A stretch of 64,000 nucleotides of DNA from an uncultured Hormoscilla sp. (GTDB lineage Bacteria > Cyanobacteriota > Cyanobacteriia > Cyanobacteriales > Desertifilaceae). The stretch is from assembly GCA_963921275.4 (NCBI GenBank), contig OZ001293.3, forward strand, positions 1,792,001 through 1,856,000. The letters are read 5' to 3'. Below the pieces are notes generated by a model. The model was not told the DNA's origin. It searched no databases and saw only the letters and a program-made list of their open reading frames with translations. The stretch's first letter is position 1; the number at the start of each line of letters is the position of its first letter. The position numbers and the translations under genes are program-made. Of the stretch, positions 1 through 45,137 are shown piece by piece.

Positions 1-1239
1 TGCCGCCGCATTCAATGTCGCCTCATTCACTCTAAAATTATGTGCGTTCTTAGAGCGGTCAAAAGAGCGTAGCACCATTGCCGTCGTCAGTAGCACCACC
101 ACCAATGACACCATTGTCATTGTCGGCAATACAAAGCCTCTCGTTGCCTGGCCCCGCCTACCTCTCCTTTTCAGTGGATGGGGTCGAGCCGGGAATCGCT
201 TCCCGACCCTCCCTTGAGGAACCGGACTTGCGATTTTCACCGCATCCGGCTACTGGGTACTAGGCCCTTTTCATAGGTAGACTTAATAGGAATTACTTCC
301 GTTAGCCCTTGCCGCCTGTCTTTTCTTCCTTTCCTGGTTTAGCAAGTGGTTGTTCTGATAACCGTTAGTATCACCATTTTCAAGTCAGTTTTACCAGTTA
401 TCCATACCTTATCCTCCACTTGCGTTTCGGATTAGTTCCGTGGCTTTTTAGGATTACTCATTCCAGCAGCTTCCTAGTATCACCGACCCACGTCAGCGCT
501 GGCTACCCAGCATCATCTACATTACTGTAGATGTTATCCCAGGAATTACCCCGGGCATTCGCTTCTTGGGCCATCCCTCCCCCCGTGGCTTGCGCTTAAC
601 ATCTAACTTGTCCTGATGGACAGCACACGAGAGGTTACTTCGTTCCCTAACAACATTTCGCGATACCTTTAGGTCCACACTATACCCCGGGAGCTATTTG
701 AGTACTATATTAGCCAGAGTCTAAAACTAATACTAGCTACCATTTCCTTTTTAGGCCAGCGCATATAGCCTTATTTCGCTGGTTCCTTATAACGAGGCTT
801 GCACATGTTTGCCTGCTCTAACCTTGGATATCTTTCCTAGCGGCGTCACCGGCTTAGGCTGCCAGTTATCCTACATTTGAGTCCTCGCTTAGCACCACGA
901 TGATGTCGCTTCGTAGCACCGAGGACCGGTGTCACCCCCGTACCTGGGGGGAGGGGAATTTAACCCCTATGCGGTCAGAGTTCCCGGCTAATGAAACCGG
1001 GCTAGCGTTCCGTGTTTGACCACGTTAGGCTAGAACGAATCGCACAGACTCCGCCGCAGGTTACCCGCCAACTTTTTGGTCATTTTTTTAGTCAACCTAC
1101 TCAACCGCCGCCACAGCCGAGACAATATGACTTGGACTTTCCCGATTTTTCCGGAACGGTGCATCTTGCCCATGTACCTAGTAGCTTTCCCGAGCGCGTA
1201 GCGTGCGCGCAGCGCAATCTTCCGCTGGATATATGCCAT
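1..1239 (-). CDS. hpsA: Hormogonium polysaccharide biosynthesis protein HpsA, N-terminal part, split by a group II intron (exon 1 1239-1046, exon 2 175 to beyond base 1)
   Basis: Joining 1046 to 175 gives ...KKLAGNLRRSL-LKRRGRRGQATRGFVLPTMTMVSLVVVLLTTAMVLRSFDRSKNAHNFRVNEATLNAAA. The GFVLPT..VSLVVVLL..RSF.R.KNA...RVNE..LNAA pilin-like N-terminus is what I recognise as HpsA. Runs off the window. Confidence 0.75.
176..1045 (-). mobile_element. ORF-less group IIB intron (870 nt) in hpsA
   Basis: Minus strand starts GTGCGATTCGTTC at 1045. Domain V is GTAGCCGGATGCGGTGAAAATCGCAAGTCCGGTTC; the domain VI hairpin ends CTCGACCCCATCC. EBS1 AGACTC (722-717) is fully complementary to the exon end GAGTCT. 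No RT ORF. Confidence 0.93.
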
Positions 1240-1491
1240 AATTCCTTATCCTTGCCACTGCCGCAATTATGATTCCCTAAGAAAAGACATAAGCCGCTTG
1301 TCGGTAGATTTTTCCCATCTTTCTACCGGCCAATGTACCACTCCCCTGCTGTATCAACAAGGTTCTGTCTCTTCTATTTTACCCTGGGAGGGCGGAAAAC
1401 CGATTGTCAGCCCATCGATTTTCCCGATTTTTCCGGAACGGTGTTCGCACCACGCAGGTCTCTTTCCACGAGGCAAGCCCTGCCCGAGAGC

Positions 1492-1728
1492 TTAATATTG
1501 ATTCAGATTAATTCCTGCTTCGGAAGCCATCGCCTGCAAGCCTTTGCGTTCCAAGGTTTTAATTGTCTTAGTAGAAAGCCGCAGCCTCACCCAGCGATTT
1601 CCTTCGGGCCACCAAACCCGCTTCCATTGCAAATTAGGCTGCTGTCGCTTTTTTGTGCGCTGGTGAGAGTGGGAAATAGCATAGGCATTATTTGCCTTCT
1701 TACCCGTCAGCTGACATCTGCGCGACAT
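1492..1728 (-). CDS. rpmB: 50S ribosomal protein L28
   Basis: [43 protein letters not shown] at 1728 preceded by GGAGG. Confidence 0.97.
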
Positions 1729-1847
1729 AAAACACCTCCAGTAGGCTGATACCACCTGTAATAATTTTACTAACCTCCATTATAGACCAATTTTTTTCAT
1801 GGGTCTGTTCTGCTGATAACCGATTTTTCCGGAACGGTTCGCTGATA

Positions 1848-1939
1848 CTAGAGCATCGGTCAAGTAGAAGCTAGAAACCGGGTTTCTGCTGTAGTTATCA
1901 ATGACTGCGAGAAACCCGGTTTCTTGACCGACGTTCTAG
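1848..1939. repeat. Palindromic MITE/REP-like element (TCGGTCAAG...CTTGACCGA with internal AGAAACCGGGTTTCT / AGAAACCCGGTTTCT)
   Basis: Nested inverted repeats just downstream of the htpG stop. Related copy at 37647-37749; core motif also at 22921-22953. Confidence 0.7.
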
Positions 1940-1943
1940 GAGC

Positions 1944-3941
1944 TTATTTAGTCGCTTGCTCTGTCAAGCGCGTCAGCACTTGATTCGATCGTTCCACGAA
2001 AGCCTTCATCCCATCAGCGTCGAAGCCTTTTTGGGCCATCAGGGCCAGGTCATAGACATGATGGCAAATTAAATTAGCCAGTTCCGCAGAGGGAGATGTG
2101 CCTTCGCCGCCAATGATGCTACCTTGAGATAGAGTGGCCAAATTCTGGATCAGGGGATGAGCTGTATTTACCAGTAAGGTATGGTCTTCGGGGAATTTAG
2201 CAGTTTGTTGCTGCATCAAGGCATTCATCTCCTGCATCCGCCGCAGAAACTCGGGCAAGAGTACCATTGCTGGGGGAGAATCTTGGGGGTTGTCCGATTT
2301 CAGCGCTTCGGTGCGGATGGTGAGTTTCGACTTATTCAGGGCTTTTTTGAACAGTTCTTGGATCTGTTCGCTGCGGGTTTGATTGGTTTTCGGATCGACT
2401 ATTTCCGAAGCCTTCTCTTTGTCCAGCAGGTTTTCGTCGATCTCGGCGTCTACCCGGGAGAACTTCACGTCTGTGTGTTCCCGTTCTAGGAAGCTGATAA
2501 AGTGGGAGTCGATGAAGGAGTCCATATACAGGACTTCCAAGCCCTGATTCTTATGCAGTTGGATGTAGGTCGTCTGGGTAATTTCGTCGGTGCAGTAGAA
2601 GACGCGGTTCTCGTGATGTTCTTTGTTGCGCTCCAGGTATTCCTTCAGGGTAGTGTAAGTATTACCCTTGTCATCGGTGTTGGCCGGACCGACTTCTTGC
2701 CAAGCATCTCCCTCTTCTGCTTGCACTTGCACTTCAGTTGGTGGCTGTTGCACCGTTCCGGAAAAATCGGCTTTGCCATCCCAGGTGGTACGATAGATGA
2801 CGATCTCTTCCACTTGCTGTTTGAACTTCTCGTCGTTCAGGCAGCCAAACTTGACAAAGGTACCCAAGTCCTTCCAGCTTTTGATGTATTCAGCACGCTT
2901 GTCCCGGTATTGCTCTTTCAGGCGATCGCCCACTTTTTTAGCAATGAAGTCAGAGATGCGGCGGACGGTGCGGTCCATCTGCAAGGCGCTGCGGGAGACA
3001 TTCAGGGGGATATCCGGGCTATCGATCGCTCCGCGCATGGGTAGCAGGAATTTAGGAATCACCTCCTCGCAATGTTCCGTGACGAACACCTGATTGCAGA
3101 ATAGCTTAATCTGTCCCTTGGTGACATCCACATCTGGTCGCAGCTTAGGAAAATAAAGAATCCCATTCAGCAGGAAAGGATAGTCTGTATTCAGATGGAT
3201 CCACAGCAGGGGTTCTTCGGTGAAGGGGTACAGATAGCGGTAAAATTCCAGATATTCTTCATCTTTCAGGTCCCTGGGGGACGTCCGCCACAGGGCCTGT
3301 TGCTTGTTAACCTGCTCGCCATCCATCATAATCTGCACGGGCATAAAATCGCAGTAGGTCTTAACTAACTGCTTGATGCGTGCCAGTTCCAGATATTCTT
3401 TTTCTTCCTCGGGAAGAGTGAGGGTAACGGTGGTGCCGCGAGTGGTGCGGGATGACTCTTCTAGCTTAAACTCTGGCGAACCATCACAGCTCCAGTGGAC
3501 CGCCTGGGCCCCTTCTTGGTAAGATAGGGTATCAATTTCCACCTGTTTGGCTACCATGAAAGAGGAGTAAAAGCCCAGTCCAAAGTGACCGATAATGGCA
3601 TCATCGGCATTGCCCTGGTATTTCTCGATGAACTCTTCAGCGCTAGAGAAGGCAACTTGGTTGATGTATTTTTTCACCTCCTCTGCTGTCATGCCAATGC
3701 CATTATCGGAGATGGAGAGGGTCTTGTTGTCCTTATCAATGCTAATCTGGATTTCGGGAGTCCCAATATCGCCAGTGAAGTCATCGCTATGGGAGACCAT
3801 TTTCAGCTTGGCGATCGCATCTACTCCGTTGGAAATCAGTTCTCTGAGGAATATTTCATGATCCGAGTAAAGAGACTTCTTGATGATCGGGAATATATTC
3901 TCGGTGTGAATGCTGATTGTGCCTTGTTCTAGTACCGTCAT
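1944..3941 (-). CDS. htpG: Molecular chaperone HtpG (Hsp90)
   Basis: 665 aa; LYSDHEIFLRELISNGVDA, DNGIGM and IGHFGLGFYSSFMVA motifs. Confidence 0.97.
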   Translation of the reverse strand: MTVLEQGTISIHTENIFPIIKKSLYSDHEIFLRELISNGVDAIAKLKMVSHSDDFTGDIGTPEIQISIDKDNKTLSISDNGIGMTAEEVKKYINQVAFSSAEEFIEKYQGNADDAIIGHFGLGFYSSFMVAKQVEIDTLSYQEGAQAVHWSCDGSPEFKLEESSRTTRGTTVTLTLPEEEKEYLELARIKQLVKTYCDFMPVQIMMDGEQVNKQQALWRTSPRDLKDEEYLEFYRYLYPFTEEPLLWIHLNTDYPFLLNGILYFPKLRPDVDVTKGQIKLFCNQVFVTEHCEEVIPKFLLPMRGAIDSPDIPLNVSRSALQMDRTVRRISDFIAKKVGDRLKEQYRDKRAEYIKSWKDLGTFVKFGCLNDEKFKQQVEEIVIYRTTWDGKADFSGTVQQPPTEVQVQAEEGDAWQEVGPANTDDKGNTYTTLKEYLERNKEHHENRVFYCTDEITQTTYIQLHKNQGLEVLYMDSFIDSHFISFLEREHTDVKFSRVDAEIDENLLDKEKASEIVDPKTNQTRSEQIQELFKKALNKSKLTIRTEALKSDNPQDSPPAMVLLPEFLRRMQEMNALMQQQTAKFPEDHTLLVNTAHPLIQNLATLSQGSIIGGEGTSPSAELANLICHHVYDLALMAQKGFDADGMKAFVERSNQVLTRLTEQATK

Positions 3942-4186
3942 AGGTCTGTGTTATTTTTTTGGAGCTTCAAAGAGCGATTGTGAAATATGGACTGCCTTTT
4001 GGCATCAGGGATTGCCGTCTGAGCTGTATTCGGCTTTCCCCACTTCTCTGTATCTGTTATCTGCGAGTGGTCCCCTGATGCTACCTTCTTTGATTTCGTT
4101 AGATAATGGCTCCATGCTATTATATCAGGTTAGGTGGCTTGTGTTGTGGGAGTGGGTCGTGTCCAGAGACACCACCCATTGCATCT

Positions 4187-6865
4187 TCATTCTTTTGATG
4201 CAATGGGGTGGTGCTCTCGGACAACACGACGGTGCGCCTCGTGTCGAGATTCTAAAACCTTGACTGGCTGTTTTTTACTGAAGCTCAAAGAGTTATCTAC
4301 AGAATCTATGATAATCCGATCGCCCTCGACAAAGGTATTTTCCAGTATCAAGGCGGCGATCGCATTTTCCAGTTCCCGCTGAATTGCCCGTTTCAGGGGG
4401 CGGGCCCCATATACTGGATCGTAACCCGCCTCTACCAAATGGTCAATAGCAGCATCGGTCAGTTCCAGAGTTATTTTTTGTTCTGCTAGCAGCCTTTCCA
4501 GCCGCCTGATTTGTATGCCCACGATTTGCCGTAACTCAGCTTTATCCAGGGCATGGAAGAGAATTATATCATCAACGCGGTTGAGAAACTCTGGGCGGAA
4601 CTGCTTGCGCAGGGCCTGTAACACCCGTTTGCGCATCTCCTCGTATTGGGTGTCGTCCCCCGCCACATCCAGTATGTGGTCGCTGCCGATATTACTGGTC
4701 ATGACTATCACTGTATTCCGGAAATCTACCGTGCGTCCTTGGGAATCGGTAATCCGTCCGTCATCCAACACTTGCAGCAAGATATTGAACACATCTGGGT
4801 GGGCTTTTTCCACCTCATCCAGCAGCACTACGGCATAGGGTCGCCTGCGCACCGTCTCGCTTAGCTGTCCTCCCTCTTCATAACCTACATATCCTGGAGG
4901 CGCACCCACCAGCCGCGCCACGGAATGCTTCTCCATATACTCGGACATGTCGATCCGTACTATAGCATCATCGCTATCAAACAAGCATTCTGCTAAGGTC
5001 TGGGCCAGTTCCGTTTTCCCTACTCCCGTCGGTCCCATAAACAAAAATGAACCGATCGGGCGTTGGGGGTCTTTCATCCCAGCCCGGGCCCGACGAATTG
5101 CTGCTGATACCGCTGCTACTGCTTCATTTTGCCCTACCACCCGCTTGTGCAGATAGGTTTCCAACTGCAACAACTTTTGCCGTTCTGATTCTAGCAGCCT
5201 GTTGACCGGTATCCCCGTCCATTTCGCCACCAATTCTGCCACATCTGCTTCCGTCACCTGTTCCCGCAGTAGGGCCGAACCGCCGGACTGCATGTCCAAT
5301 AATTGGGCTTCCTTCGCCTCCCGATCGCCCTCTATCTTTTGCAGGCGTCCGTACTTCAACTGGGCCGCCTTATTCAGATCGTAGGCCCGTTCTGCCTGTT
5401 CTATTTGCACCCGCAGCTTATCTTCCTCTTCCTTGAGGGTCTTGATCGCCTCCAACAGTTGCTTCTCTCCTTGCCACTGGTCGTTCAACTGTTGCTGGCG
5501 GGACTGCAAACTGCTAATTTCTTGCTCGATCCGGCGCGATCGTTCCTGGGCCTCCCGCTGCACTTCTGCTTCCAGGGACAACTTTTCCATTTCCAACTGC
5601 ATGATCCGGCGATCGATGGTTTCCAGTTCCTCTGGTTTGGAAGTGATCTCCATCTTCAGCTTCGCCGCTGCTTCATCTACCAGGTCGATCGCCTTATCGG
5701 GCAAAAATCTGTCTGTGATGTAACGACTGGACAGCATCGCTGCCGCTACCAGGGCTGAGTCAGTAATTTTCACCCCGTGATGGACTTCATAGCGTTCCTT
5801 CAGTCCCCGCAAGATAGAAATAGTATCCTCTACCCCGGGCTGATTGACAAACACCTGTTGAAACCGGCGTTCCAGGGCCGCATCTTTTTCGATATATTTG
5901 CGGTACTCGTCCAGGGTTGTGGCCCCGATGCAGCGCAGTTCCCCCCGTGCCAGCATCGGTTTCAGCAGGTTACTGGCGTCCATGGCACTGGACTGTCCCG
6001 CACCGGTTCCTACCACCGTATGCAGTTCGTCGATAAACAGCACGATCTGACCGTCCGAGTGGGTGACTTCCCGCAATACTGCTTTCAGCCTGTCTTCAAA
6101 CTCTCCCCGGTATTTAGCACCAGCAATTAGAGACCCCATATCTAGGCCAATTAACTGGCGGTTTTTCAGAGATTCCGGTACTTCGTTATTAATTATCCGC
6201 TGGGCCAGGGCTTCCGCGATCGCCGTTTTGCCCACCCCCGGTTCTCCGATCAGGACCGGGTTATTTTTCGATCGGCGGGACAATACCTGAATCAGGCGGC
6301 GAATTTCTTCATCTCGGCCAATCACCGGATCCAGCTTACCGGTGCGAGCCTGTTCTGTCAAGTCCCGTCCGTACTTTTCCAGGGCGGCATAGCGATTTTC
6401 TGGACTTTGGTCCGTTACCTTCTGACTGCCCCGCAGGTCCTTGATCGCCCCTTCCAACTGGGTGCGGGTACACTGAAAACCTCTGATTAACCGGCGACCT
6501 ACGCGCTCATCTTCAGCAAAGGCTAGCAGCAGGTGTTCGACCGAAATATACTCGTCTTGCCATGACATCCGCGCCTTTTCTGCCTGGTCCAGCATCACGT
6601 CCAAGCCCCGTCCCAGGTATAATTGCTCTACATCTGGGGATTTTTTTTGCCGGGAGTCAAACAGTTCTAGCTGTTGAAATAGCTTCACTGGGTCTACGCC
6701 AGCTTTGGACAGGATCGTCTTGGCAATGCCGTCCTGTTCTAACATGGCGATCGCCACATGTTCCACCTCCAACTGCTGATGTTTTCCGCGACGGGCCACA
6801 TCCTGGGAGTTGACGATCGCTTCCCAAGCTTTATCTGTAAATTTACTGGAGTCTGTCGGCTGCAT
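4187..6865 (-). CDS. clpB: ATP-dependent chaperone ClpB (cyanobacterial ClpB2-type, MQPTD start)
   Basis: 892 aa; two Walker A motifs ([16 protein letters not shown]) and a long coiled-coil middle domain. Confidence 0.96.
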
Positions 6866-6922
6866 GGCTGGAACTGTGATGCTATTAGCTATATCTTATG
6901 CTTCCCAGGGAAGGGGGGTACT

Positions 6923-7445: not shown

Positions 7446-9634
<2,189 letters not shown>

Positions 9635-16990: not shown

Positions 16991-17270
16991 GTGCGATTCG
17001 TTCTGGCGTAACTGGGCACCACGTCCAGGATAGTCAGGTGGGGTTTTACCCACAACTCAGGCGTTATGAGGATTAGATTTCCGTGCGATTCGTTCCGACG
17101 TAACTGAGTAATCAGGATAGTCGGGTGGGGTCCAAACCCACAACTCAGACGTTATGGGGGTCAAATTCCCCCCCCATGTACAGGGGTGACACCGGTGCTC
17201 TCCTCTCCGCGTGCGCTGAAGCGCGTACGCTCCGGGATGCGCTTCGGTGCTGTGGAGCATCATCGATGCA
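16991..17270 (+). mobile_element. Two nested 5' fragments of group II introns (twintron remnant)
   Basis: GTGCGATTCGTTCTGG at 16991 and GTGCGATTCGTTCCGA at 17083, both followed by similar domain I sequence. The inner one continues GGGGGTCAAATTCCCC...GGGGTGACACCGGT and then stops; no domain V/VI nearby. Confidence 0.8.
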
Positions 17271-22016: not shown

Positions 22017-22226
22017 CTGTTGAAGACTAAAGTCTTCACTACGAACCTGTTGAAGACTAAAGTCTTCACTACAAACCTGTTGAAGACTAAAGTCTTCACT
22101 ACAAACCTGTTGAAGACTAAAGTCTTCACTACAAACCTGTTGAAGACTAAAGTCTTCACTACAAACCTGTTGAAGACTAAAGTCTTCACTACAAACCTGT
22201 TGAAGACTAAAGTCTTCACTACAAAC
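22017..22226. repeat. Seven tandem copies of the 30-bp palindromic unit CTGTTGAAGACTAAAGTCTTCACTACAAAC
   Basis: Exact 30-bp period with one substitution; internal hairpin TGAAGACT-AA-AGTCTTCA; two related half-copies at 21950-22006. Confidence 0.95.
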
Positions 22227-22890
22227 CTGGCCCGATCGCGTGCAACTCTGCTTCCAGGCTTTGAGCGCGTCGTTCTGCGGCCTGTAGCAGTTCTTCTGGA
22301 GTCAGAAATCTTTTTCCTTGTTCGTCATACCAGTAAATCCATTCCCGAGTTATTCCTTGATAGGTTCCCATTTCGCTACCAATGCCCAAACCAATTTCTG
22401 GCAACCAAACAGGATTTGTCAACTGTCGCTGATACCTGCCATCCACCAAGCGATAAACTTCCAGAGGTGGTTTGCCGCGACGCATCGTATTATAAATTAC
22501 GTAGTACAGCACTTCCAATTCAGTATAGATGTCCTTCCTAAAGAAATATTCTCCTCCACCTTCACGGCAAATCACCTCTAGGGTCAAAATCGGCGGGATC
22601 TGCTTTTCTTCCCACATGACATAACTCAAGCGGAGTTCTTCTTCCAAAACTCGATCAACTCCCAAACTCAGAAACCCATCTGGGACGATCGCGGTTTCAT
22701 CGGGGTGATAATAAATCCCCAATGCAGCACCAAAAAACCAATCCCACCGTTCTCCCCAGATTATCGCCAGAGTCGCCTCCAGCAAACTGGGCATCAAATG
22801 TTGTAGTTGATTTTGATTATTCGCCGCCTGTTTGTCAGTGTCCCGTAACTCTTCAGCATCAGGTACATTGCGATCGGAATACTCGAACAT
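22219..22890 (-). CDS. Uma2-family (DUF820) endonuclease-like protein
   Basis: IVPDGFLSLGV, SYVMWEE, LTLEVI, YYVIYN; somewhat degenerate, and its stop codon lies inside the 30-bp array. Confidence 0.8.
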   Translation of the reverse strand: MFEYSDRNVPDAEELRDTDKQAANNQNQLQHLMPSLLEATLAIIWGERWDWFFGAALGIYYHPDETAIVPDGFLSLGVDRVLEEELRLSYVMWEEKQIPPILTLEVICREGGGEYFFRKDIYTELEVLYYVIYNTMRRGKPPLEVYRLVDGRYQRQLTNPVWLPEIGLGIGSEMGTYQGITREWIYWYDEQGKRFLTPEELLQAAERRAQSLEAELHAIGPGL

Positions 22891-22997
22891 AGTTTTTCTC
22901 TATCTCATCATTTGTAACCCAGAAACCCGGTTTTTTGTCAAAACCGGGTTTCTTAATTATAGCAGATCGAGACCACCCGATCGCCCGTCACCTCTTT

Positions 22998-23699
22998 TCA
23001 ATTAAGAGAGTCTGGATCTATGCCGAGCGATCGCAACTGTTCCGCCAGATATAAAGCGCGTTGTTCAGCTGCTTGGCGGAGTTGTCGCTCTTGCTGGGTC
23101 AATTCTTCGGGAGTCAGAAATCGTTCTCCTCGCTCATTATACCAGTAAAGCCATTCCCGCGTTATCCCCTGATATGTGCCTTTCTCTGTACCAATTCCCA
23201 AATCTATCTCTGGTAACCAAACCGGATTTCCTTCCTGCAACTGGTACGTTCCCTTCACCAATTTATAAACTTCTAGACGTTGTTTACGGCGGCGAAATGG
23301 ATTGTAAATTACATAATACAATATTCCCATTTCTGCATAGATATCCTTCTTTGATTTATATTCCCCACCCCTGTTCTTTGAAACCACCTCTATGGTCAAA
23401 ATCGGCATCACATTATTTTCTTCCCAGAGGACGTAGCTTAAGCGGAGTCCCTCATCAACCACTCGATCGACTCCCAAGCTGAGAAATCCATCCGGGCTGA
23501 TCGCCGGTTCTTCTGGGTGATGATAAATCCCCATGTCAACCCCGAAAAACCAGTCCCACCGTTCTGCCCAGATCGTCGCCAGTATTGCCTCCAGCATACC
23601 GGGAATTAAATGTTGTAATTGATTGTCCACAGGTTTTTCGTCAGAGTCAGGTAGATCTTCAGCCCCAGGTAAGCAGTCTAACAGATTGTACTTTAACAT
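22998..23699 (-). CDS. Uma2-family (DUF820) endonuclease-like protein
   Basis: LPDSDEKPVDNQLQ, PDGFLSLGV, IEVVS, GIDPDSL C-terminus. Confidence 0.9.
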   Translation of the reverse strand: MLKYNLLDCLPGAEDLPDSDEKPVDNQLQHLIPGMLEAILATIWAERWDWFFGVDMGIYHHPEEPAISPDGFLSLGVDRVVDEGLRLSYVLWEENNVMPILTIEVVSKNRGGEYKSKKDIYAEMGILYYVIYNPFRRRKQRLEVYKLVKGTYQLQEGNPVWLPEIDLGIGTEKGTYQGITREWLYWYNERGERFLTPEELTQQERQLRQAAEQRALYLAEQLRSLGIDPDSLN

Positions 23700-23941
23700 A
23701 AGCAGCTTCACCAGAACGATAATATAATTATACTCTATCTGCCAATTTTAAAACAACAGCATGATAATATATGAAATCAGTCAAGCGATCAGTTAAGTGT
23801 GGGAATAATGGACGCTACCATCGGACTGTAGCGAAAAAAAATTACACCCAAGGGCTTTTGCTGAATGCCGATCGCAGGGCAATATTGCTATACTAAAGAG
23901 ACGATTCTGCTTTAACAATGCCTTGCGGAGCAACTATCCTG

Positions 23942-24586
23942 ATGAGAGAGCGTATTCAGCAGCTAATTGAGAACCTAAACCGCACCATTGTGGGTAAAAA
24001 TGATGCCATCCGTTTAGTGCTGGTGTCTATACAAACTCAGTCGGAAATATCAGAAGAAGATCGGACTGAAGAAGATGAGACTGAGTCTTACGAAAAAGCG
24101 AAAGCACGTCAAGCTCAGTTACAACTCGAACTTTGGCACCTGACTGTCGCTCATGCTGTGCAAGGTATTTTGGATTTTGTCAAGATGGCCAAGGTCGCAG
24201 CTGAGGGTCAAGGAATTCCTACAGGAGTGGTATTTTTTCCCTCTGCTAACAAAATGATCGGTCAGGGGTTTGACTCTCGCTTGCAGCCTTGGGATCGGTT
24301 CCCTAGCTCGATGGAATGGCATCCTATGTCTTACGGTGTCTGCGGTAATGCTAGCTGCATTCTATCTGAGGTAAAGCGGGTACTAACTTTGGCTCCCGAT
24401 AACGCCCAGATCCAACCGGTCTTAGCAGGAACTTGGGGGCGATCGCGCAGCAATCGTCCTTCCCTAGAAGCACAAATGCAAAGGATTCGTCAAGTGGCTC
24501 CCCACATCCGCACTGTCAGCCATTTGGCCTATTCTTGGCAAGAACCAGAAATTGACCGCGATCGCATGCTTTGCCAATCGAGGTAA
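23942..24586 (+). pseudogene. Chimera: MoxR ATPase N-terminus joined to the C-terminus of a GH10-like cyanobacterial protein
   Basis: MRERIQQLIENLNRTIVGKNDAIRLVLVS (MoxR start, no Walker A follows), then LWHLTVAHAVQG...FDSRLQPWDRFP...WHPMSYGVCG...SHLAYSWQEP. Confidence 0.6.
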
Positions 24587-24848
24587 TGACCAATTGCTGC
24601 GGGATGCTGATGTAGGTTGGGTTTCGTGCCTCAACCCAAAATCAACAGAGTGCTTACGGTGGGTTAGAATAAGCTAACCCACCCGACAATTAGTAATCTT
24701 ATCTTTCTATGACCAATACCCAACTTCGCCAACAACTCAACGAGGAAATCGATCGACTCTCTCCCGGAGACCTCACTCAACTCCTCGAACTCGCCCGCCA
24801 ACTCCGCCAAACTAGGGAACTCAAACCCGATATAGAGTACGCTATGGC

Positions 24849-25082
24849 TTGGTCGCAGGGGAACATTATCAGGTGATTCGGACAGGTTGGCACAAGGATC
24901 GGCGGATTTATGGATGTTCGATTCATATCGATCTCAAGGGTGACAAGATTTGGATTCAATATGATGGCACTGAGATTGGCATTGCTAATGAGTTGCTCGA
25001 TTGCAATATATCCAAACAGGATATTGTGCTAGCATTTCACGAGCCTTTTGCACGTCAGTTTACAGAGTTTGCTGTAGGCTGA
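24849..25082 (+). pseudogene. xisI: XisI protein, 5'-truncated
   Basis: HYQVIRTGW...RIYGCSIHIDLKGDKIWIQYDGTEIGIANELL...DIVLAFH...FAVG; about 40 N-terminal residues and xisH are absent. Confidence 0.8.
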
Positions 25083-25166
25083 TACTATTTTTATTTAAAG
25101 ATCAATTATTCCAAAAACTGGACGATCCCAATTCGCGGGCGATCGCCTGCGAATTGGGATCGGTAA

Positions 25167-25957
25167 TTTTAATCGATGTCGTCCGGGTTAATTCCCATTT
25201 CGAGTAAACGCTGGACTAATTGTTCAGCCCGTTGGCGTTCATTTTCAGCCCGTTGGCATTCATTTTCAGCCCGTGTTCCGTTTGGGCCTGTTTTTCCAGG
25301 GTTTTGATTTTGGTTTGTTCTTCTTTAATTAATTCCTCCACTAACGGCGGATCGAGCAGTTCTTTTACTGATAAAAATAGCTGCTCAAACTGACCGGAAA
25401 CAATTGACGTATCTTCTGGAAAATCATCAAAACTATATCCTTCTTCCTTGCGAAGATTAGCACAGACTCGAACAACTTTATTTTTCGGGTCTACTATCCA
25501 ATATTCGGGAATTTTCTTCGTATTTATTGCGTTTAATCACATAATATTCCTGGCGATTGCTGCTGACAATTTCTACCAGCATAATTGGCTTTTCATCAAA
25601 ATCAAAAACCCCAGCCCCTGAGCGATCGCTGATTTGCTCCCAAAGACTTTGATGGCAAACGATCGCATCAGGAATTCGGGATGAATTTTCCTCGGTTCTA
25701 ACTCCTACAGTGGTTTTGGCCACCAAAGATAAATTTTGGGCAGCAAAGTAGCGCTGTAACTTGTAGACTAAAAATTCACATATTTTTGTGTGTTCTAGAG
25801 TTGGTGTGGACATCGGTATTAGTTTACCCCTGACTAATTCATAGATAACATCCGGTTCTCCTTCATAGGAGAGATATTCTTGGAAGGTTAACAGATGTTC
25901 CTTTTCTTGAGGTTCATTGATGGCCACCTCCGTTGCTGGGGCGACAGCTTGTGTCAT
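25167..25957 (-). pseudogene. Uma2-family endonuclease, frameshifted tandem duplicate
   Basis: 5' half nearly identical to 26194-27078; frameshift near 25515 after RNKYE and further indels in the 3' repeat region. Confidence 0.85.
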
Positions 25958-26193
25958 ATTCGACCTCCCTTGCGCTCGCGTTCATTGACTATCTTATCTT
26001 AGCTTATTGGACCTCTTGACCGTCAGCACAGTTGGGACGACCAGGTACAGACCTCATTTGCTGCAACACCCTCAACTACCTACAGTTGCGAGGGGTAGTG
26101 CTCCTGATGTAATGATAGCAAATCCACTAACCGTTGTTTCAGTGGGATATAATCATTACTTGTGGAGCGCTACCCTTTGGGAGGAAGGTAATT

Positions 26194-27078
26194 TTAATCG
26201 ATGTCGTCCGGGTTTACTCCCATTTTTAGTAACCGCTGGACTAATTGTTCAGCCCGTTGGCGTTCATTTTCAGCCCGTTGGCGTTCATTTTCAGCCCGTT
26301 GGCGTTCATTTTCAGCCCGTTGGCGTTCATTTTCAGCCCGTTGGCGTTCATTTTCAGCCCGTTGGTGTTCGGTGTCCGCCCGTTGGCGTTCTGAAAGAGC
26401 TTGTTCTTTCAGGGTTTTGATTGTGCTTTGTTCTTCTTTAATTAATTTATCCACCAAGGGCGGTGCGAGCAGTTCTTTCACAGATAAAATTAGCTGCTCA
26501 AACTGACGGGAAACAATTGACTGTTCTGAGGTAAAATCGGCAAGAAAACGATATCCTTCTTCATTGCTAGGATTAGCACAGACCCGAACGAGTTTATTTT
26601 TCGGGTCTACTATCCAATACTCGGCAATTCCAGCCGATTCGTATTCGTTGCGCTTAATCACATAATCTTCCCGGCGATTGCTGCTGACAATTTCCACCAC
26701 CAGAATCGGCTTTTCATCAAAATCAAAAACTCCTGCCCCTGGACGATCGCTTATTTGCTCCCAAAGACTTTGATGGCAAACGATCGCATCAGGAATTCGG
26801 GATGAATTTTCCTCGGTTCTAACTCCTACAGTGGTTTTGGCCACCAAAGATAAATTTTGGGCAGCAAAGTAGCGCTGTAACTTGTAGACTAAAAATTCAC
26901 ATATTTTTGTGTGTTCTAGAGTTGGTGCGGACATCGGTATTAGTTGACCCCTGACTAATTCATAGATAACATCCGGTTCTCCTTCATAGAAGAGATATTC
27001 TTGGAAGGTTAACAGATGTTCCTTTTCTTGAGGTTCATTGATGGCCACCTCCGTTGCTGGGGCGACAGCTTGTGTCAT
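26194..27078 (-). CDS. Uma2-family endonuclease with a C-terminal AENERQR repeat coiled coil
   Basis: SRIPDAIV, VVEIVS, GIAEYWIVDP; 21-bp tandem repeats at about 26245-26390. Confidence 0.92.
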   Translation of the reverse strand: MTQAVAPATEVAINEPQEKEHLLTFQEYLFYEGEPDVIYELVRGQLIPMSAPTLEHTKICEFLVYKLQRYFAAQNLSLVAKTTVGVRTEENSSRIPDAIVCHQSLWEQISDRPGAGVFDFDEKPILVVEIVSSNRREDYVIKRNEYESAGIAEYWIVDPKNKLVRVCANPSNEEGYRFLADFTSEQSIVSRQFEQLILSVKELLAPPLVDKLIKEEQSTIKTLKEQALSERQRADTEHQRAENERQRAENERQRAENERQRAENERQRAENERQRAEQLVQRLLKMGVNPDDID

Positions 27079-28622
27079 ATTCGACCTCCCTTGCGCTCGC
27101 GTTCATTGACTATTATATCTTATCTTAGCTTATTGGACATTTTTCCAGGAAGCCCCAAATACTGTAAACTTCGATCGATGATTTAGGATTGCTAGATGAG
27201 CGGTATTGTCGGTATTCTCAACGGCGACGGTCAACCCATTGACCCCGCCCTGTTACAGCAAATGATGGAGTTGATGGCATTTCGCGGCCCCGATGGCTGG
27301 GATACCTGGAATGACGGTTATGTCGGTTTCGGTCACGCCCTCTTGCGGACTACCTGGGAATCAGCAAAAGAACGGCAACCTCACAGTCTCGATGGGAAAG
27401 TTTGGATTACTGGGGATATCCGCCTGGACTGGCGCGAAGATTTGATTGACCAATTGCGTGCGTCCCGACGGAATCTAGAGAAGGACGTGACGGATGTTGA
27501 CCTGGTTTTGCACGCCTACTAGCTTTGGAAAGATGCTTGTTTGGAACGACTGAGTGGAGATTTTGCCTTTGCTATTTGGGATGGCCCCCAGCAGCGATTG
27601 TTCTGCGCCCGGGACCAGTTTGGGGTCGTACCTTTTTTCTATGCAACAATCGGAAAAAGCCTGATTTTTAGCAATACTCTCAACTGTCTGCGCCTGCACC
27701 CAGAGGTATCGGATAGACTTAATGAAGGGGCGATCGCCGATTTCCTGCTATTTAGCATGAATATGGATATGGCCACGACCACCTTCTTTGCCGATATCCA
27801 AAAGTTGCCCCCCGCCCACACCCTGATTTGGTCAGAGGGCGAGGTGCGCGTCCGGCGTTACTGGCAGTTGCCCGAAGCAGTAGAATACCTGCGTTACCAG
27901 CGCCCAGAAGAATATGTCGAGCAGTTTCGGGAGTTGTTCGAGCGCTCAGTTGCTTCCAGACTGCGAACCAACAGTGCGGGCACTATTTAAGCGGGGGAAT
28001 GGACTCCACCAGTATCGCTGCCACTGCCTATAAATTAATGACAGCAACGGGTTCCCCTGTTGATTTTCGGGCCTACGCGAGTTTCTATAAACAAGTCATT
28101 GCTGACGAGGAAGGGGACTACGCCGCACTGGTCGCTGAGGCGGCGGGTTTTCCTATTGAGTACCTAGTTGTGGAAGACTATTGGCAGCAGCCACCGATCG
28201 AACAACCGGAGTACATCGAATCAGAACCGCTGCTGATTCGCAACCAAAGCGTTGAGATGGAATTGAATCGGCGAGTCGCTGGGCACAGTCGGGTGCTGCT
28301 AGCTGGGTTTGGTGGCGATCCGGCACTTTATCCAGCGCCGTATTCCCAGAATAAGTCGCTTATGCTCAATCCTTTGGGTTACATTCGCTCTCTTCGTGCC
28401 AGGGTGAGGTTACGTACCCGGTTGCGCCAGTGGCTGCGCATAGAGCAGCAAGGGCGGTTCGGCTCCGCTCACCGCGAGCAACAAAAGATTTATTTTCCTG
28501 ACTGGTTTAACCAGATTTCGCAGAACGAGCGAACTTGAAAGCGCGACTGCAAGAAATATTGACTGCGCCACCGCAAAAAGACCGCTACGGAATGGCGACT
28601 GCTCCCTTGTGGTCCAATATTA

Positions 28623-29634
28623 ACTCAAGTTGCGACCTATAAAAATTGGATACAAAAAGCTATGATAAAGAGAATTATTTTCAACTCTAATCCCTTAGAT
28701 GTAACAGCATGAATTGACTTGGGAAACAAATTGGTGATTCGACTAAAACAGGTTTCAACTTGTTTTCTTGTTACTTTTTGTATATATTCAAAACAAGAAT
28801 ATTCTTTTCTTTTTGAGTTCTTTTTTCGCAAAGGTTTTAACATTATACTTGACGACTCTTTTAGTAAATCCTCTAATTGATAATCATTATAAGCTTTATC
28901 TCCATAAACTATTGAATTTGATGGTAAGTCAAAGCCAAAAGATTGCAAAACTTTAAAATCATTATAACTACCAGGATCTAGATAAAATTCTATTGGCTTT
29001 CCATTTTTGTTTACCAACATATGAACTCTTAATCCATAAAAATAACGTTTTTTACTGGCAATATACCCTCGATATTCTTCCTTGTTATAAATTTGGCATC
29101 TATCAATCCTAATATTATCACATACTGGCACCGGGAAACTATCAAGAATATATTCTTGACCCGGATTGAGCTCTTTAAATGTTTGAGCTATAACTTGGAA
29201 GAAAAACATCCAAATTGGTTCCTCAATATTGTGTAATCGACGATTGAACCTACTTTTACTTAACAGATTTTTTATATACTTGTGTTGGACCATAAATTGA
29301 CAAGAGCGATCGTGATGTCCTCCGAAAAAATATGCAGCAACTAATCCGACTGTCATCACTTCGGCATTGTTCATTTTTACTTGTGGATCTTCTTTTATAT
29401 TTAACGCTTTTAGTAGCTCGTCACAAAGAACAAAAATTGTTGTAATCATATCTTCCATCATCTACATCCCCCAGCAATTAACTATTATTTTAGTACATTA
29501 TAACCTATAAACAGCCAACCCGCCGTCTAGCACAAAAAAAATATAATTTTGTATCAAAAGCTACGAAATATCCCAAATATCTGTAAAGTATAAGTGGGTA
29601 ATTCATATTTTTTTTAATAGGTCGCAACTTAGGT
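28623..29634 (-). mobile_element. IS982-family insertion sequence
   Basis: TIRs ACTCAAGTTGCGACCTAT / ATAGGTCGCAACTTAGGT; 7-bp target duplication AATATTA (28616-28622, 29635-29641). Removal restores WSNI-IFAGSDPG. Confidence 0.92.
28637..29461 (-). CDS. IS982-family transposase (apparently intact, 274 aa)
   Basis: SKSRFNRR, ILDSFPVPVC, YFYGLRVH, YGDKAY, RKQVETCFS. Confidence 0.9.
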   Translation of the reverse strand: MMEDMITTIFVLCDELLKALNIKEDPQVKMNNAEVMTVGLVAAYFFGGHHDRSCQFMVQHKYIKNLLSKSRFNRRLHNIEEPIWMFFFQVIAQTFKELNPGQEYILDSFPVPVCDNIRIDRCQIYNKEEYRGYIASKKRYFYGLRVHMLVNKNGKPIEFYLDPGSYNDFKVLQSFGFDLPSNSIVYGDKAYNDYQLEDLLKESSSIMLKPLRKKNSKRKEYSCFEYIQKVTRKQVETCFSRITNLFPKSIHAVTSKGLELKIILFIIAFCIQFL

Positions 29635-30102
29635 AATATTATATTTGCTGGGTCCGATCCGGGCTTCAGTGGCTTTCCTCTTAAAGTTCGCTTTCCGTTT
29701 TTTGATTTGCGTTTGGTGTTATACTTATTGTCAGTGCCGCCAGAACCTTGGTTTGAAAGTAAATTCTTGCTCCGGGAAGCCATGAAAGGCACATTGCCGG
29801 AGTCGGTGCGACGGCGACCCAAAACACCGCTCAGGGGCCGTCCCCGTTATGAATTTGCCAGGCAGCGAGGGGTCGTGCCATGGATGGTAGAACTGGCAAC
29901 TACACCCGCGCTGAGTTATTATGTCAACAGCGATCGCCTGTTGCAAAAAATCAACGCAGTAGAGGAACTCACCCCCGCGAGCTACGATCGAGCGTCATTT
30001 GCTCTGACACTGGCTTACTGGCTGCGCCACCAACGCCGCCCGAAGACCAAGACCAGACCGGTTTGATCGCAAATTTGAAATCAAAAGTAAGGAGAATAAC
30101 CC

Positions 30103-31186
30103 ATGTCTAGAGTAACTAACAACCAAGAGCGTCCATCTAACCAAAAAGATTATCACAGCCCTAAATTGCGGAGTTTCGGCAAGGTTAGCGATCTGACCTT
30201 AACGAATAATCCTGGAGGTGGTTGTGCGATTCGTTCCGGCGTAAACCAGTAATGGTGAAAGTCGGGTCTGGTTCCATTAGCCAGATAACTCTGGTCATCA
30301 TGGGGGTTAAATTCCCCTTCCCCAGGTGCGGGGGTGACACCGGTCCTTAGTGCTGCGGAGCCACATCGCCGTGGTGTGGAGCAAGGACTTAAATGAAGGA
30401 TAAGGTCTCAGCCCAGGGACCGACGCCGCATGGCTGCGCCACGCTGCGCGATCGGAAAGAGGTTCATGGTTAGAACAAGCAAATCCCTGTAAGCATCGTC
30501 ACCACGAACAAGCGAAAAGAGGCTGACACGCTTGGCACAAAATGTGCATGTAGTCCGCGTATCAGTGCTAATCAATCACTGATATCGTACCCGAAACGAC
30601 TGCCGGTGTAGAGGTGAGACCTAAAAGCCTCGTGAAATGATACCAGGGAACGAAGTAACCCCGTGGTGCTGTCCTACCGACGGACAAGTTAGATGTCAAG
30701 CGCAAGCCCACGTGGGAGGGATGTCCTAAGAAGCCAAAGCCTGGGGTAATGCCTAGGATATGCAGACGTAGGACGGATATGGTAAGAAGTTCTGGGAGAT
30801 AGTAGCCCTTAAATGTACTAAACCAGGAGCAATCCTAGGGAGTAATGGTGGATTAAATCCTAACCGGGTAAAAATTCAGAGCCCCAAATATAAGGGACAT
30901 GTAAGTAAAGAGCGGATTTAGTGGTTTACTGGTTTACCCCCGCAAACCTTCCGGAGTTAGGTAGCTAACGGCTCCACGACTGACCATAAGGGGCAAAATT
31001 TCATAGGACAAGGGACAATGGGAGTAATCCAAAAGTTACCTGCCTATGACAAGGGCTTATCAACCAGTAGCCGTGTGCGGTTCCAGTCGCTCTTCAGGTT
31101 TCGCTCTTGGAGGGTTGGTACGTGAGTACCAGTTCGACCCCGACCCCTCTGATGATGGTTTGGGGATCGCGATTTACAATTCCTAA
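30103..31186 (+). CDS. Lasso peptide precursor (53 aa after intron removal; exon 1 30103-30223, exon 2 31146-31186)
   Basis: AAGGAG RBS, directly downstream of the cyclase. MSRVTNNQERPSNQKDYHSPKLRSFGKVSDLTLTNNPGGG-SSDDGLGIAIYNS contains the YxxPxLxxxGxxxxxT leader motif. Confidence 0.8.
30224..31145 (+). mobile_element. ORF-less group IIB intron (922 nt) in the lasso precursor; domain V degenerate
   Basis: Starts GTGCGATTCGTTCC; first ~150 nt nearly identical to the eno intron. EBS1 AATCAA (30570-30575) pairs 5/6 with GTGGTT. Domain V reads TAGCCGTGTGCGGTTCCAGTCGCTCTTCAGGTTT; ends TTCGACCCCGACC. Confidence 0.92.
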
Positions 31187-41998: not shown

Positions 41999-42113
41999 AA
42001 TTGTAGTGGGTACGTGCCGCTATAATTGTAAAGCTTTACCCATTTAATCATTAAGCATTGTACCTACCCACCCCACTATCATAACCCCCGAAGAGTAGGA
42101 GGATTGGCATTAA

Positions 42114-42950
42114 ATGACAATTGAGTTTACTAAGTATCACGGACTGGGCAATGACTTTATTCTGATTGACAATCGGGCCTCGTCGTCACCCTTGATTACG
42201 CCGTCGGTAGCAGTAACATTGTGCGATCGCCATTTTGGCATTGGGGCAGACGGGGTGATCTTTGCCCTGCCCGGACTTGCAGACACTGACTATAGCATGC
42301 GGATTTTTAACTCAGATGGTTCGGAACCAGAAATGTGCGGCAATGGGATTCGCTGTTTAGCCCGGTTTATTGCCGATTTAGAGCCAGACGGCCGCAGTCA
42401 ATACCGGATTCACACTCCCGCTGGGGTCATGATACCTCAACTGACAGCATCCGGTCAAGTAACTGTTGATATGGGCATGCCCAAGCTGCTGGCGTCCGAA
42501 ATTTCGACTACATTAGCTGCTGCTGACCAAAAGGCGATCGAAAAGACCATAGAAGTAGGGGGGCAATCTTGGCTCGTCACTTGTGTGAGCATGGGCAATT
42601 CTCACTGTGTTACCTTTGTAGAGGATGTGGCAGCGATCGACCTGGAAACCATTGGTCGGCAGTTTGAACATCATACTGCATTTCCCCAGCGTATAAATAC
42701 GGAATTTATCCAAGTAATCAATTCAAACTCAATGAAAATGCGGGTGTGGGAACGGGGAGCAGGTGCTACTCTGGCTTGTGGAACGGGTGCTTGTGCAGCA
42801 GTAGTAGCGGGGGTGCTGACCGGAAAGTGCGATCGGCGCACTCAAGTTGAACTGCCCGGCGGTTGCCTGGAAATAGAATGGGCAACAGCAGGCAGGGTTT
42901 ACATGACTGGCCCTGCTGAGCGAGTGTTCTCTGGCAGAATAGATTTATGA
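42114..42950 (+). CDS. dapF: Diaminopimelate epimerase
   Basis: [34 protein letters not shown]. Confidence 0.97.
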
Positions 42951-42982
42951 GCGTTGGTGGCAAAACACAAGAGGGATGCGTG

Positions 42983-45137
42983 ATGGGTGGAGGAATTTAT
43001 CTGATTCAGGATAACGACCAGCTAGTTGAAATGACAGAACAACCCTATGAATCGGAAGAAAGACTGCAAGAACTGCTGGAAAAATATCCTAACCTCTTGG
43101 CAGGAGACCAGATAGATAGAGCAACGCCGAGACGATGGTTGTTAATCTCACGAGAAGTAAAATTACCTCTGGAAGAGGATAGCAATGAACAATGGTCTCT
43201 GGATCATTTGTTTGTGGATCACGATGCAATTCCGACCCTGGTGGAAGTCAAGGGGAACAGCAATACTCGCATCCGGCGAGAAGCGATCGGTCAGATGCTC
43301 GACTACGCTGCAAATATGATCGTTTACTGGCCAGTTGAGTCAATAGTTAGCCAGTTTGAAGCAAATTGTAAGTCTCAGGATAAAGATCCCGAACAGGTAT
43401 TTGAGGAATTTCTCGGGGTTGATGCTGACGAAGAGAAGTTTTGGCAAAAGGTCAAAACTAATCTGCAAGCGGGAAAACTGCGTCTTGTCTTTGTCTCAGA
43501 TGAGATAGTGGCGGAACTGCGGCGTGTGGTGGAGTTTCTGAATGAAAAGATGGACCCGGTAGAAGTATTGGGAGTGGAGATTAAGCAATACGTGAGTGCG
43601 GAGGGTCTAAAAACGCTGGTTCCCAGAGTGATTGGTAAGACAACAGAAGCGCAGCAGAAAAAATCCAGTGCGACTCTGGAGAGAAGACGCTGGGACGAAG
43701 TCTCATTCTTTCAGGAATATCAAGTTAGACAAGGTCCAGATGAAGCTCAGATAGCTAGAAAGATATATGAATGGGCTAAGAGCCAAAAAACATTAGTGGA
43801 AGTTCAGTGGGGTACAGGAGACACCTATGGCGGGTTTGTTGTTTGGGTGTCGGAAGAACCCCGATCGGCTTCTGAGCTGTTCCAGGTGGGGATTAATGGC
43901 AGACTACAGGTATCCTCTAGCACCTATGCAGCCTTCCCACAATTTAATAGTAATGAAAAATGGATGGAACTGAGAAGTAAACTGAGTGTCATTGGTCTGT
44001 CCCTGCCGATATCTCCTACTGAAAGAAGATTGACAACTTTTCAGTTGTCTAATTGTTTGCAGGATGAATTTGCCCTGGGGCGGGTGAATTAGGGGTCGAG
44101 CTGGGAATCGCTTCCCAACCCTCCCTTTCGAACCGTGCATGCGGTTTTCATCGCACACGGCTACTGGTTAGTTGGACCTTGTCATTGGCAGGATTACTGG
44201 GGATTGCTCCCTTTGTCCCTCTTCTTATGCAGTTTTTCCCCTTTATGGTAGTCGATAGGACTGTTTCGTATCTAGCTCCGGAAGGTTCGCGGGGGGTATC
44301 CAGGAAACCACTTATACCGCTCTTTGCTAACATTGCCCCTGTCTCGTCATTAGGGGACTTTTCAAGTTTTACCCGGCTAGAGTTTTAGTCCATATTACAA
44401 TCTAGGATTTCTCCTGATTTTTGGTACGTATTAGGGATACTTCCACCCAAGATTTCCAACTATATCCGACCCACGTCTGCCGGTACATTCCTGCACCACT
44501 TATACAAGGAGTTACCCCTGTCCTTTGCTTCTTGGGCCATCTCTCTCCACATGGCTTACGCTTATCATCTAACTGGTCCCTATCTCCTGACCACCGGTCG
44601 ATAGTCGAGTAGTTATGGACAGCACACGTGGAGTTACTTCGTTCCCTGGTATCATTTCACGATGTTTTTAGGTCCCTGCTTTACCCCGGGAGCTACTTTG
44701 AGTGTGATGTTGGCCATATGCAACAGCCAACACTAGCTACCATTTCCTTTTTAGGCCAGCGTGTAAGCCTTCTTCCGCTGGTTACACATAACGAGGCTTT
44801 CACAGATTCGTTTTCCTAACCATGAGCATCTTTCCTAGCGGAGTTGCCGACTTTGGGCTGTCAGCTATCCTACATTTAAGTCCTTGCTCCGCACCACGGT
44901 GATGTCACTCCGCAGCACTAAGGACCGGTGTCACCCCCACACCTGGGGAGAGGGAATTTAATCCCCATGATGACCAGAGTTACCATATTGAGCCTGATTA
45001 TGATTAGTTTTGGTTCTAAACATTCAGTCCAATTTTGGCTCGGCTTTTCCGTGTTTGTACAGGTTAGGCCGAAACGAGTCGCACTACAAACTTTTGATTG
45101 GGTGGTTGAGCAAATCTTACCTTCATCAGAGGCGTAG
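42983..45137 (+). pseudogene. PD-(D/E)xK (NucS-like) nuclease-domain protein; last 18 codons cut off by an antisense intron
   Basis: ESEERLQELL, LDHLFVD...LVEVK, GQMLDYAA. The ORF now stops at 44092; removing 44088-45084 gives ...ALGRV-IQTFDWVVEQILPSSEA*. Confidence 0.7.
44088..45084 (-). mobile_element. ORF-less group IIB intron (997 nt), antisense to its host gene
   Basis: Minus strand starts GTGCGACTCGTTTC. Domain V GTAGCCGTGTGCGATGAAAACCGCATGCACGGTTC; ends CTCGACCCCTAAT. EBS1 TGCATA pairs 5/6 with TTTGTA. Confidence 0.94.

Follow-up and report, generated by a model that had tools for sequence, protein, structure and literature searches.

The stretch analysed here (hereafter the window) comprises 64,000 nucleotides of the genome of an uncultured Hormoscilla sp. 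(contig OZ001293.3, positions 1,792,001 to 1,856,000 of the forward strand, assembly GCA_963921275.4). It contains four full-length group II introns that lack an open reading frame (ORF), labelled W_I1 to W_I4 in the order of their coordinates, and three fragments of the same family:

176..1045, minus strand: W_I1, 870 nt, ORF-less group IIB intron; Rfam RF00029 44.4 bits
8238..9136, plus strand: W_I2, 899 nt, ORF-less group IIB intron; Rfam RF00029 45.0 bits
16991..17080, plus strand: weak 5' fragment, model positions 1-93 (nhmmer E 2.9e-4), beginning GTGCGATTCGTT
17083..17200, plus strand: 5' fragment, model positions 1-127 (blastn and nhmmer), in tandem with the fragment at 16991-17080
30224..31145, plus strand: W_I3, 922 nt, full length, with a degenerate domain V (31069-31100)
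44088..45084, minus strand: W_I4, 997 nt, ORF-less group IIB intron; Rfam RF00029 42.1 bits
58954..59023, minus strand: 3' fragment, 5'-truncated, running from the 3' half of domain V through domain VI to the 3' end (blastn and nhmmer)

The four introns are homologous over their whole length, start with GTGCGA and end in CGACCCCnnnn, and share pairwise identities of 63.6-73.8%. Together with the fragments they make up 3,966 of the 64,000 bases (6.2%). An earlier note on this DNA, made from the letters alone, had described four complete introns at these positions on a common scaffold without a reverse transcriptase (RT) gene, plus three fragments. Positions, scaffold and fragments were all recovered by alignment; no ORF of 100 or more amino acids lies wholly within W_I1-W_I4 according to the ORF list of the window, and the Pfam domains RVT_1 and GIIM are absent from its 69 ORFs. 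Completeness holds for the length of all four introns and fails for W_I3 with respect to domain V. The Rfam model Intron_gpII (RF00029, domains V and VI), which the note had proposed as a check and which was applied here to the window only, scored W_I1, W_I2 and W_I4 above the gathering score and gave no match for W_I3 even at E≤1; the class models for domains I-IV (group-II-D1D4) had no match in the window at E≤1. W_I4 carries extra insertions in domain I and in the loop of domain II. The fragment at 17083-17200 may continue as degenerate domain I sequence to ~17275, and the one at 58954-59023 stands directly after the end of an ORF, ~115 nt upstream of an IS110-family transposase gene (Pfam).

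The common fold was obtained from an alignment (A2) of the four window introns with ten full-length copies from Hormoscilla genomes (14 in total). RNAalifold resolved these into the six canonical group II domains: domain I (columns 7-494), domain II (499-589), the joining segment J2/3 (590-595), domain III (596-768), domain IV (769-1094), domain V (1098-1129) and domain VI (1148-1180), with domain IV abutting domain III and no linker between them. Over the 180 consensus pairs, sliding the partners by one to three columns lowers the share of paired cells from 97.2% to 40-49%, and both-sided (compensatory) changes occur in 74 pairs against 10-22 in the slid controls; none of 500 shuffles matched any of the observed pairing measures. 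As the fold was predicted from the same alignment, the paired-cell measure is favoured and the compensatory counts are the stronger evidence.

Domain V of group II introns is a helix of ~34 nt with an AGC triad, a 2-nt bulge and a GNRA loop, and the introns are bounded by 5' GUGYG and 3' AY, their domain VI having an A bulged out 7-8 nt from the 3' end. The alignment reads the domain V triad as AGC, all 14 copies start with GTGCGA, and the unpaired A of domain VI is found 8 nt ahead of the 3' end. W_I2 and W_I4 terminate in AT, W_I1 and W_I3 in CC, so that two of the four window copies carry the 3' AY consensus. Domain V folds at -14.4 to -18.2 kcal/mol in W_I1, W_I2 and W_I4 and at -7.4 kcal/mol in W_I3, compared with -12.5 to -18.2 kcal/mol in the other 13 copies, and the loop of W_I3 reads UUCCA, the GAAA having been lost.

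Recognition of the target exons was approached with an assumption-free scan, in which every A2 column was compared with exon positions -16 to +4 in ten non-redundant copies. Columns 409-414 ranked first for positions -1 to -6 in strict register (10, 10, 9, 10, 9 and 8 of 10 paired), defining a 6-nt exon-binding site 1 (EBS1) within a 9-nt loop whose closing stem (helix 18) has compensatory changes at seven of its 9 bp. Columns 340-343 ranked first for positions -9 to -12 (8-9 of 10 paired), and column 344 pairs with -13 in nine copies, which makes EBS2 5 nt long and leaves exon positions -7 and -8 unpaired. In IIB introns, EBS3 pairs with the first base of the 3' exon, in place of the delta-delta' pairing of IIA. 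Here column 451, placed in the 3' strand of the internal (coordination) loop of domain I between helices 14 and 15, ranked first for position +1 and forms a Watson-Crick pair in nine of the ten. The gamma base (column 592, in the 6-nt J2/3) is Watson-Crick paired with the last intron base in all ten. Outside the paired positions, no exon position is conserved in nine or more of 12 sites, which fits target recognition mainly by RNA pairing.

Mapped from the alignment columns onto the window, the elements and their pairing scores (EBS1 of 6, EBS2 of 5, EBS3 of 1) are as follows, the exon targets (intron-binding sites, IBS) of W_I2 being given with the enolase exons below:

W_I1, minus strand: EBS2 785-789, EBS1 717-722, EBS3 682, gamma 576; domain V 220-251, domain VI 181-213, bulged A 184; 5' exon target 1046..1058 (IBS1 1046-1051, IBS2 1054-1058), IBS3 = base 175; scores 6, 2, 1
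W_I2, plus strand: EBS2 8492-8496, EBS1 8557-8562, EBS3 8599, gamma 8706; domain V 9061-9092, domain VI 9099-9131, bulged A 9128; scores 5, 5, 1
W_I3, plus strand: EBS2 30502-30506, EBS1 30570-30575, EBS3 30611, gamma 30719; 5' exon target 30211..30223 (IBS2 30211-30215, IBS1 30218-30223), IBS3 = base 31146; scores 5, 4, 1
W_I4, minus strand: EBS2 44784-44788, EBS1 44717-44722, EBS3 44681, gamma 44542; domain V 44131-44162, domain VI 44093-44125, bulged A 44096; 5' exon target 45085..45097 (IBS1 45085-45090, IBS2 45093-45097), IBS3 = base 44087; scores 5, 3, 1

The scan thus arrived at the EBS1 loop that the earlier note had read for the four introns, whose pairings are correct (AGACTC/GAGTCT 6/6; GTGGCC/GGCAAC, AATCAA/GTGGTT and TGCATA/TTTGTA 5/6 each), and at the same columns for its EBS3 bases (682, 8599, 30611 and 44681) and gamma bases (576, 8706, 30719 and 44542). 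In the structural alignment, EBS1 and EBS3 fall at the note's positions, in the domain I loops expected of a IIB intron. EBS2 was absent from the note and was newly found by the scan. The note had named genome-wide complementarity between EBS and flanks as a test against chance. Among the ten non-redundant copies an intron scores 9-12 of 12 against its own exons (mean 10.7), whereas the 90 non-cognate pairs average 4.79 and reach 8 at most. For the four window introns the summed cognate score is 36 of 44, while the nine derangements give 13-20. The six-domain scaffold is kept in every copy, and each has its own EBS1, EBS2 and EBS3 matched to its own flanks. Assignment to group IIB is secure. 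The family also has the 5' end GUGCGAUUC, a stem-less EBS2 and an EBS3, and since the 5' consensus, stem-less EBS2 and EBS3 are among the criteria described for a IIB2 call in a study of Trichodesmium (PMC4649490), it may, provisionally, belong to that subclass, of the chloroplast-like class.

The insertion sites differ in kind, and only W_I2 lies in a gene that is read in the sense direction. The interrupted genes, and a further insertion within W_I2, are:

7446..8237, plus strand: enolase exon 1 (Pfam Enolase_N and Enolase_C); IBS2 8225-8229, IBS1 8232-8237
8733..8786, no strand assigned: near-perfect palindrome of 54 nt, inserted in domain III of W_I2
9137..9634, plus strand: enolase exon 2 (Pfam Enolase_C); IBS3 = base 9137
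42947..44092, plus strand: ORF hit by W_I4, 381 aa, no Pfam family; W_I4 lies antisense at its 3' end

W_I2 sits in the enolase gene in sense orientation and in phase 0, at a codon boundary, and its removal in silico gives an in-frame enolase of 430 aa. Ten other enolase clusters are 96-98% identical to exon 1 of the window, and nine of them are uninterrupted (429-435 aa). All five of the relatives' enolases that were read by sequence run straight through the predicted W_I2 junction, which supports the predicted splice join. By this comparison the enolase intron is a gain in the lineage of the window, or else it was lost precisely in all of the relatives. The earlier statement that each intron is matched to a different gene holds only for W_I2. 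As for the others, W_I1 lies outside intact ORFs, ~900 nt downstream of htpG (Pfam) on the same strand, with stops in all frames of its flanks; W_I3 is found between a piece of an asparagine-synthase pseudogene, disrupted by an insertion sequence, and a TPS-domain gene, not within an intact ORF; and W_I4 is antisense to its host ORF, whose frame runs 17 codons further once the intron is removed in silico.

The palindrome in W_I2 is absent from the other 13 copies of the family; copies of 91% identity occur at two of the loci described below, in one sister genome (L013:765-817 and L016:5202-5254), and it resembles a small mobile hairpin element. W_I3 likewise carries an insertion in domain I (~30430-30455), which is one of five copies in the window of a dispersed repeat of 22-26 nt (the others at 48773-48798, 52063-52089, 52110-52135 and 59640-59665). 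Upstream of W_I3, at 27523-30063, the asparagine synthase gene is split into three pieces or more, and a DDE transposase gene (28640-29461, minus strand) stands between them. Two more stretches, 51022-51789 and 58047-58838, hold transposase genes, and ORFs of the Uma2 family occur four times within 22222-27102. Mobile elements and broken genes abound in the window.

Copies in other genomes were sought with a scan for a domain I 18-mer in one genome per species, which gave at least 21 loci (cited by L numbers). At least 13 of the loci listed come from three Hormoscilla metagenome-assembled genomes, GUM202, SP12CHS1 and GM7CHS1pb. Eight of those listed are non-cyanobacterial and share nothing beyond the 18-mer above 60 bits; these were treated as chance. 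The window clpB is 92.7% identical to that of GUM202, and the window holds 41 copies of the HIP1 octamer, which together mark its source as a cyanobacterium of this lineage. Downstream of clpB, the window has htpG where GUM202 has a glycosyltransferase gene with an antisense intron (L008), and this difference between the two neighbourhoods (window 1-6900 against L008) indicates a rearrangement between the genomes.

Several of these copies bear on mobility. In GUM202, the introns of L011a and L017 are identical (100%) and that of L020 is 99.9% identical to them, at three unrelated sites whose IBS1 sequences are variants of one hexamer. The inorganic pyrophosphatase gene, ppa, contains two family introns separated by a 52-nt exon in GUM202 (L019:2900-4560) and the first intron only in SP12CHS1 (L021:991-1746), where the empty second site is an exact join of the exons; removal of the introns leaves one continuous reading frame. 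Together with the absence of the enolase intron from the relatives, these near-identical copies at three sites and the second ppa intron's presence or absence support a family that is mobile, or was so until very recently. The recognition loops also change. L020 and L012 occupy the orthologous site in two species, and one base change in the exon is matched by one base change in EBS1; W_I1 and L008 are 91.6% identical, yet share none of the six EBS1 bases, differ in EBS3 as well and occupy different sites. L008 lies antisense in a GT2 glycosyltransferase gene, the frame of which is restored by its removal, as enolase is by that of W_I2, so that both introns are precise insertions. Besides ppa, genes interrupted in sense in the relatives include an inositol-monophosphatase-family gene and a leucine-rich repeat (LRR) gene. 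Identity across the family copies ranges from 61 to 100%.

At L007:2900-4698, a W_I1-like intron is split by a second family intron (3213-4137, opposite strand), which is inserted into the EBS1 hairpin of the outer one, on its antisense strand; just upstream, at 2647-2858, there is a further 3' fragment. A further enolase (P0003), 98% identical to that of the window, passes the window intron site normally and diverges ~37 codons later, with a tail of 12 residues that resembles read-through of the 5' end of a family intron in another frame; this suggests a second, independent enolase intron site in another Hormoscilla-like genome. About 7 further intron pieces were found in ~55 kb of flanks around the 13 loci listed from the three sister genomes.

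Candidate proteins for splicing and copying the family were examined beginning with an ORF beside the family copy of L012, in GM7CHS1pb (L012:3-1337), which encodes RVT_1, GIIM and HNH domains. This ORF extends across domains V and VI of its intron to a stop 6 nt short of the 3' end, and all related intron-encoded proteins (IEPs) have a common C-terminal peptide encoded by domain V. The Hormoscilla IEPs show 55% identity with a Limnospira RT/maturase across the 442-aa query, and a protein search with the L012 IEP returned many RT/maturase clusters in Hormoscilla genomes. Three clusters of a set of at least ten, whose assignment to the window's own genome is weighed below, have 588-596 aa, a YADD motif and intact ends. 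With the L012 IEP as tblastn query, the window and all the loci listed yielded only the IEP itself and a 33-aa remnant in L016. There an intron of the IEP-bearing lineage has had its ORF deleted and keeps only N-terminal and C-terminal remnants; along L016:1560-3160, a 196-nt 5' piece of an L011a-type intron is followed by ~360 nt of AT-rich sequence and then by this ORF-deleted intron, and the L016/L013 block with its AbrB-family neighbour is present twice on one 3.1-Mb contig. None of the 13 Hormoscilla loci among the matches listed has an ORF within its family copy. A search of the window for the IEP-bearing lineage gave just short shared motifs, and blastn of W_I2 against the PLSDB plasmids matched 33-47 nt of domain V only, in 4 records, with no related ORF-containing intron.

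We consider it likely that these elements form a diversified family of non-autonomous (ORF-less) group IIB introns that has been recently mobile and would be served by an RT in trans. The intron RNA would be spliced and would then reverse-splice into DNA sites matching its EBS, and copying would be carried out in trans by an RT/maturase/HNH protein that group II introns with an ORF encode at other places in the genome. New target sites would become available through changes in the EBS loops. Sense insertions in needed genes (enolase, and ppa in the relatives) would persist because they are spliced; antisense and intergenic insertions would be tolerated or would destroy genes, and some, such as W_I3 and the three fragments, would decay. 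As for the earlier proposal of a non-autonomous, diversified family mobilised by an RT, the absence of ORFs, the diversified EBS and the mobility are upheld by the alignment, the scan and the comparison of genomes. Mobilisation by an RT acting in trans is what we infer by analogy with the TeI3/TeI4 introns of Thermosynechococcus and with Trichodesmium.

A number of observations count against this interpretation. No RT/maturase was found in the 64-kb window (Pfam on 69 ORFs), and searching the 14 aligned copies by tblastn with the IEP of L012 gave no IEP. The intron of L012, the only IEP-bearing intron with readable RNA (its 3' end), has a domain VI unlike that of the family and is by this comparison a second RNA lineage. 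The at least ten diverged RT/maturase/HNH clusters that very probably belong to the genome of the window are assigned to it only indirectly. Splicing of W_I2 is deduced from the integrity of enolase rather than from transcripts, and W_I3, with its decayed domain V, is probably catalytically inactive. Apart from the enolase gain, the window, with identities of 63.6-73.8%, has no direct sign of very recent copying. The pairings are uneven as well: W_I1 pairs at only two of five EBS2 positions, its own-site score is equalled at 1102 of 127,948 window positions (11-point score), L017 and L007b among the 14 copies lack the EBS3 pair, and gamma column 592 has two states only and is tied with column 92, so that its covariation alone is weak.

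Some of these points would also suit immobile relics, inherited vertically and spliced by themselves or with host factors, in which retromobility has ceased and the EBS-IBS matches are kept for splicing only. Pairing between EBS and IBS is required for both splicing and mobility, and the matches as such therefore serve either account; the divergence of the window copies, the window without an RT, and the decay of W_I3 and the three fragments could be expected of relics too. Selection for splicing, however, cannot keep the matches of the three window copies that lie outside any gene read in sense, and antisense insertions disrupt genes. Relics would also have to accommodate an enolase intron that is missing from relatives with 96-98% identical enolases, copies of 99.9-100% identity at three GUM202 sites, and a ppa intron present in one species and absent in another, and we regard them as quite unlikely. 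A slim chance at best is given to the view that each copy degenerated independently from an autonomous intron by deletion of its RT ORF, with no long ORF-less lineage. Such a derivative does exist, namely the intron of the IEP lineage in L016, and the ORF-less introns of T. elongatus are described as having arisen by ORF deletion, though once (PMC2882425). In the present family, by contrast, domain IV can be aligned across the copies, with covariation in its stems (helices 24-29), a tblastn search with the L012 IEP detected no remnant either in the copies or in the window, and the 13 Hormoscilla loci among the matches listed are uniformly without an internal ORF.

That the EBS matches are post-hoc coincidences, the true sites lying elsewhere, has a probability close to nil. 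Single matches in the window are indeed short, and besides the positions that equal W_I1, the full score of W_I4 is equalled at 395 of the 127,948. Yet in the open scan the same columns came out on top, in register, for 11 exon positions; the cognate scores (9-12) all lie above the non-cognate maximum of 8; and the loops so found are placed where IIB introns bear EBS1, EBS2 and EBS3. A diversified family, putatively served in trans, remains the reading we favour.

Few bacteria are rich in group II introns, and fewer still have them inside essential genes; we know of no other natural systems for studying how introns proliferate and are retargeted and how a shared splicing apparatus acting in trans arises. 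In this family, one scaffold bears ten or more distinct target specificities; there are also a 91.6%-identical pair with wholly different address loops, a compensatory change between exon and EBS1 in orthologous copies, and enolase and ppa gains that are dated among genomes whose enolases are ~2-4% diverged. On the practical side, gene callers break enolase and other genes of these genomes into pieces. A much more tentative suggestion, possible and in our view doubtful, is that group II introns, most of them ORF-less, number several hundred in sponge symbionts of the Hormoscilla type, are now invading housekeeping genes and share a few RT/maturases for splicing and mobility. Its basis is the intron density of the window and of the flanks of the sister loci, both of which may be biased by clustering and by the choice of window; invasion of housekeeping genes would be exemplified by enolase, interrupted at two different sites in different lineages, and by ppa with its two introns and 52-nt mini-exon. 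If true, this would be the heaviest intron load known in bacteria, above the 101 of Arthrospira platensis, and a living model of intron invasion in a host-restricted symbiont, as has been invoked for early eukaryotes.

No paper pairing Hormoscilla with introns was found among the open full texts of PubMed Central (PMC) and bioRxiv, and comparison was made with other cyanobacteria. The closest likeness is to Thermosynechococcus elongatus, for which 28 IIB copies are reported (1.3% of the genome), 17 of them ORF-less and in six EBS families, and where ORF-less introns were shown by assay to be mobilised by permissive IEPs of sister introns (PMC2882425). As described there for TeI3/TeI4, the Hormoscilla family consists of cyanobacterial IIB ORF-less copies in lineages whose EBS1, EBS2 and EBS3 are matched to their own sites, with fragments, an intron within an intron (here L007) and, very probably, RTs from other introns of the same genome. 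There are also differences from that account: T. elongatus copies are 85-100% identical, against 61-100% here; introns make up 1.3% of the genome there and 6.2% of the window here; TeI3 introns keep ORF remnants of a single deletion, and none was seen in the Hormoscilla family by tblastn with the L012 IEP; T. elongatus introns are described as seldom lying in genes, whereas here enolase, and ppa in the relatives, are interrupted in sense; the TeI introns are described as IIB1, and the Hormoscilla family has the 5' consensus used for IIB2 in the Trichodesmium study (PMC4649490); and mobilisation in trans was assayed in T. elongatus, where for Hormoscilla we infer it.

The resemblance to Trichodesmium erythraeum, also a filamentous cyanobacterium, lies in ORF-less introns within protein genes, with several per gene, the splicing of which is thought to depend on maturases encoded elsewhere (PMC4649490). 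Splicing in vivo is reported there for 17 introns, ten of them ORF-less, whereas here it is predicted, and the likeness is one of description. Arthrospira platensis, like Hormoscilla an oscillatorian cyanobacterium with many CL-type group II introns, has the 101 introns that were the maximum in a survey of representative genomes (PMC8919778). The Hormoscilla family thus resembles the known TeI3 and Trichodesmium ORF-less introns, and differs in being more diverged, in having no ORF remnant, in interrupting essential genes and in being locally dense.

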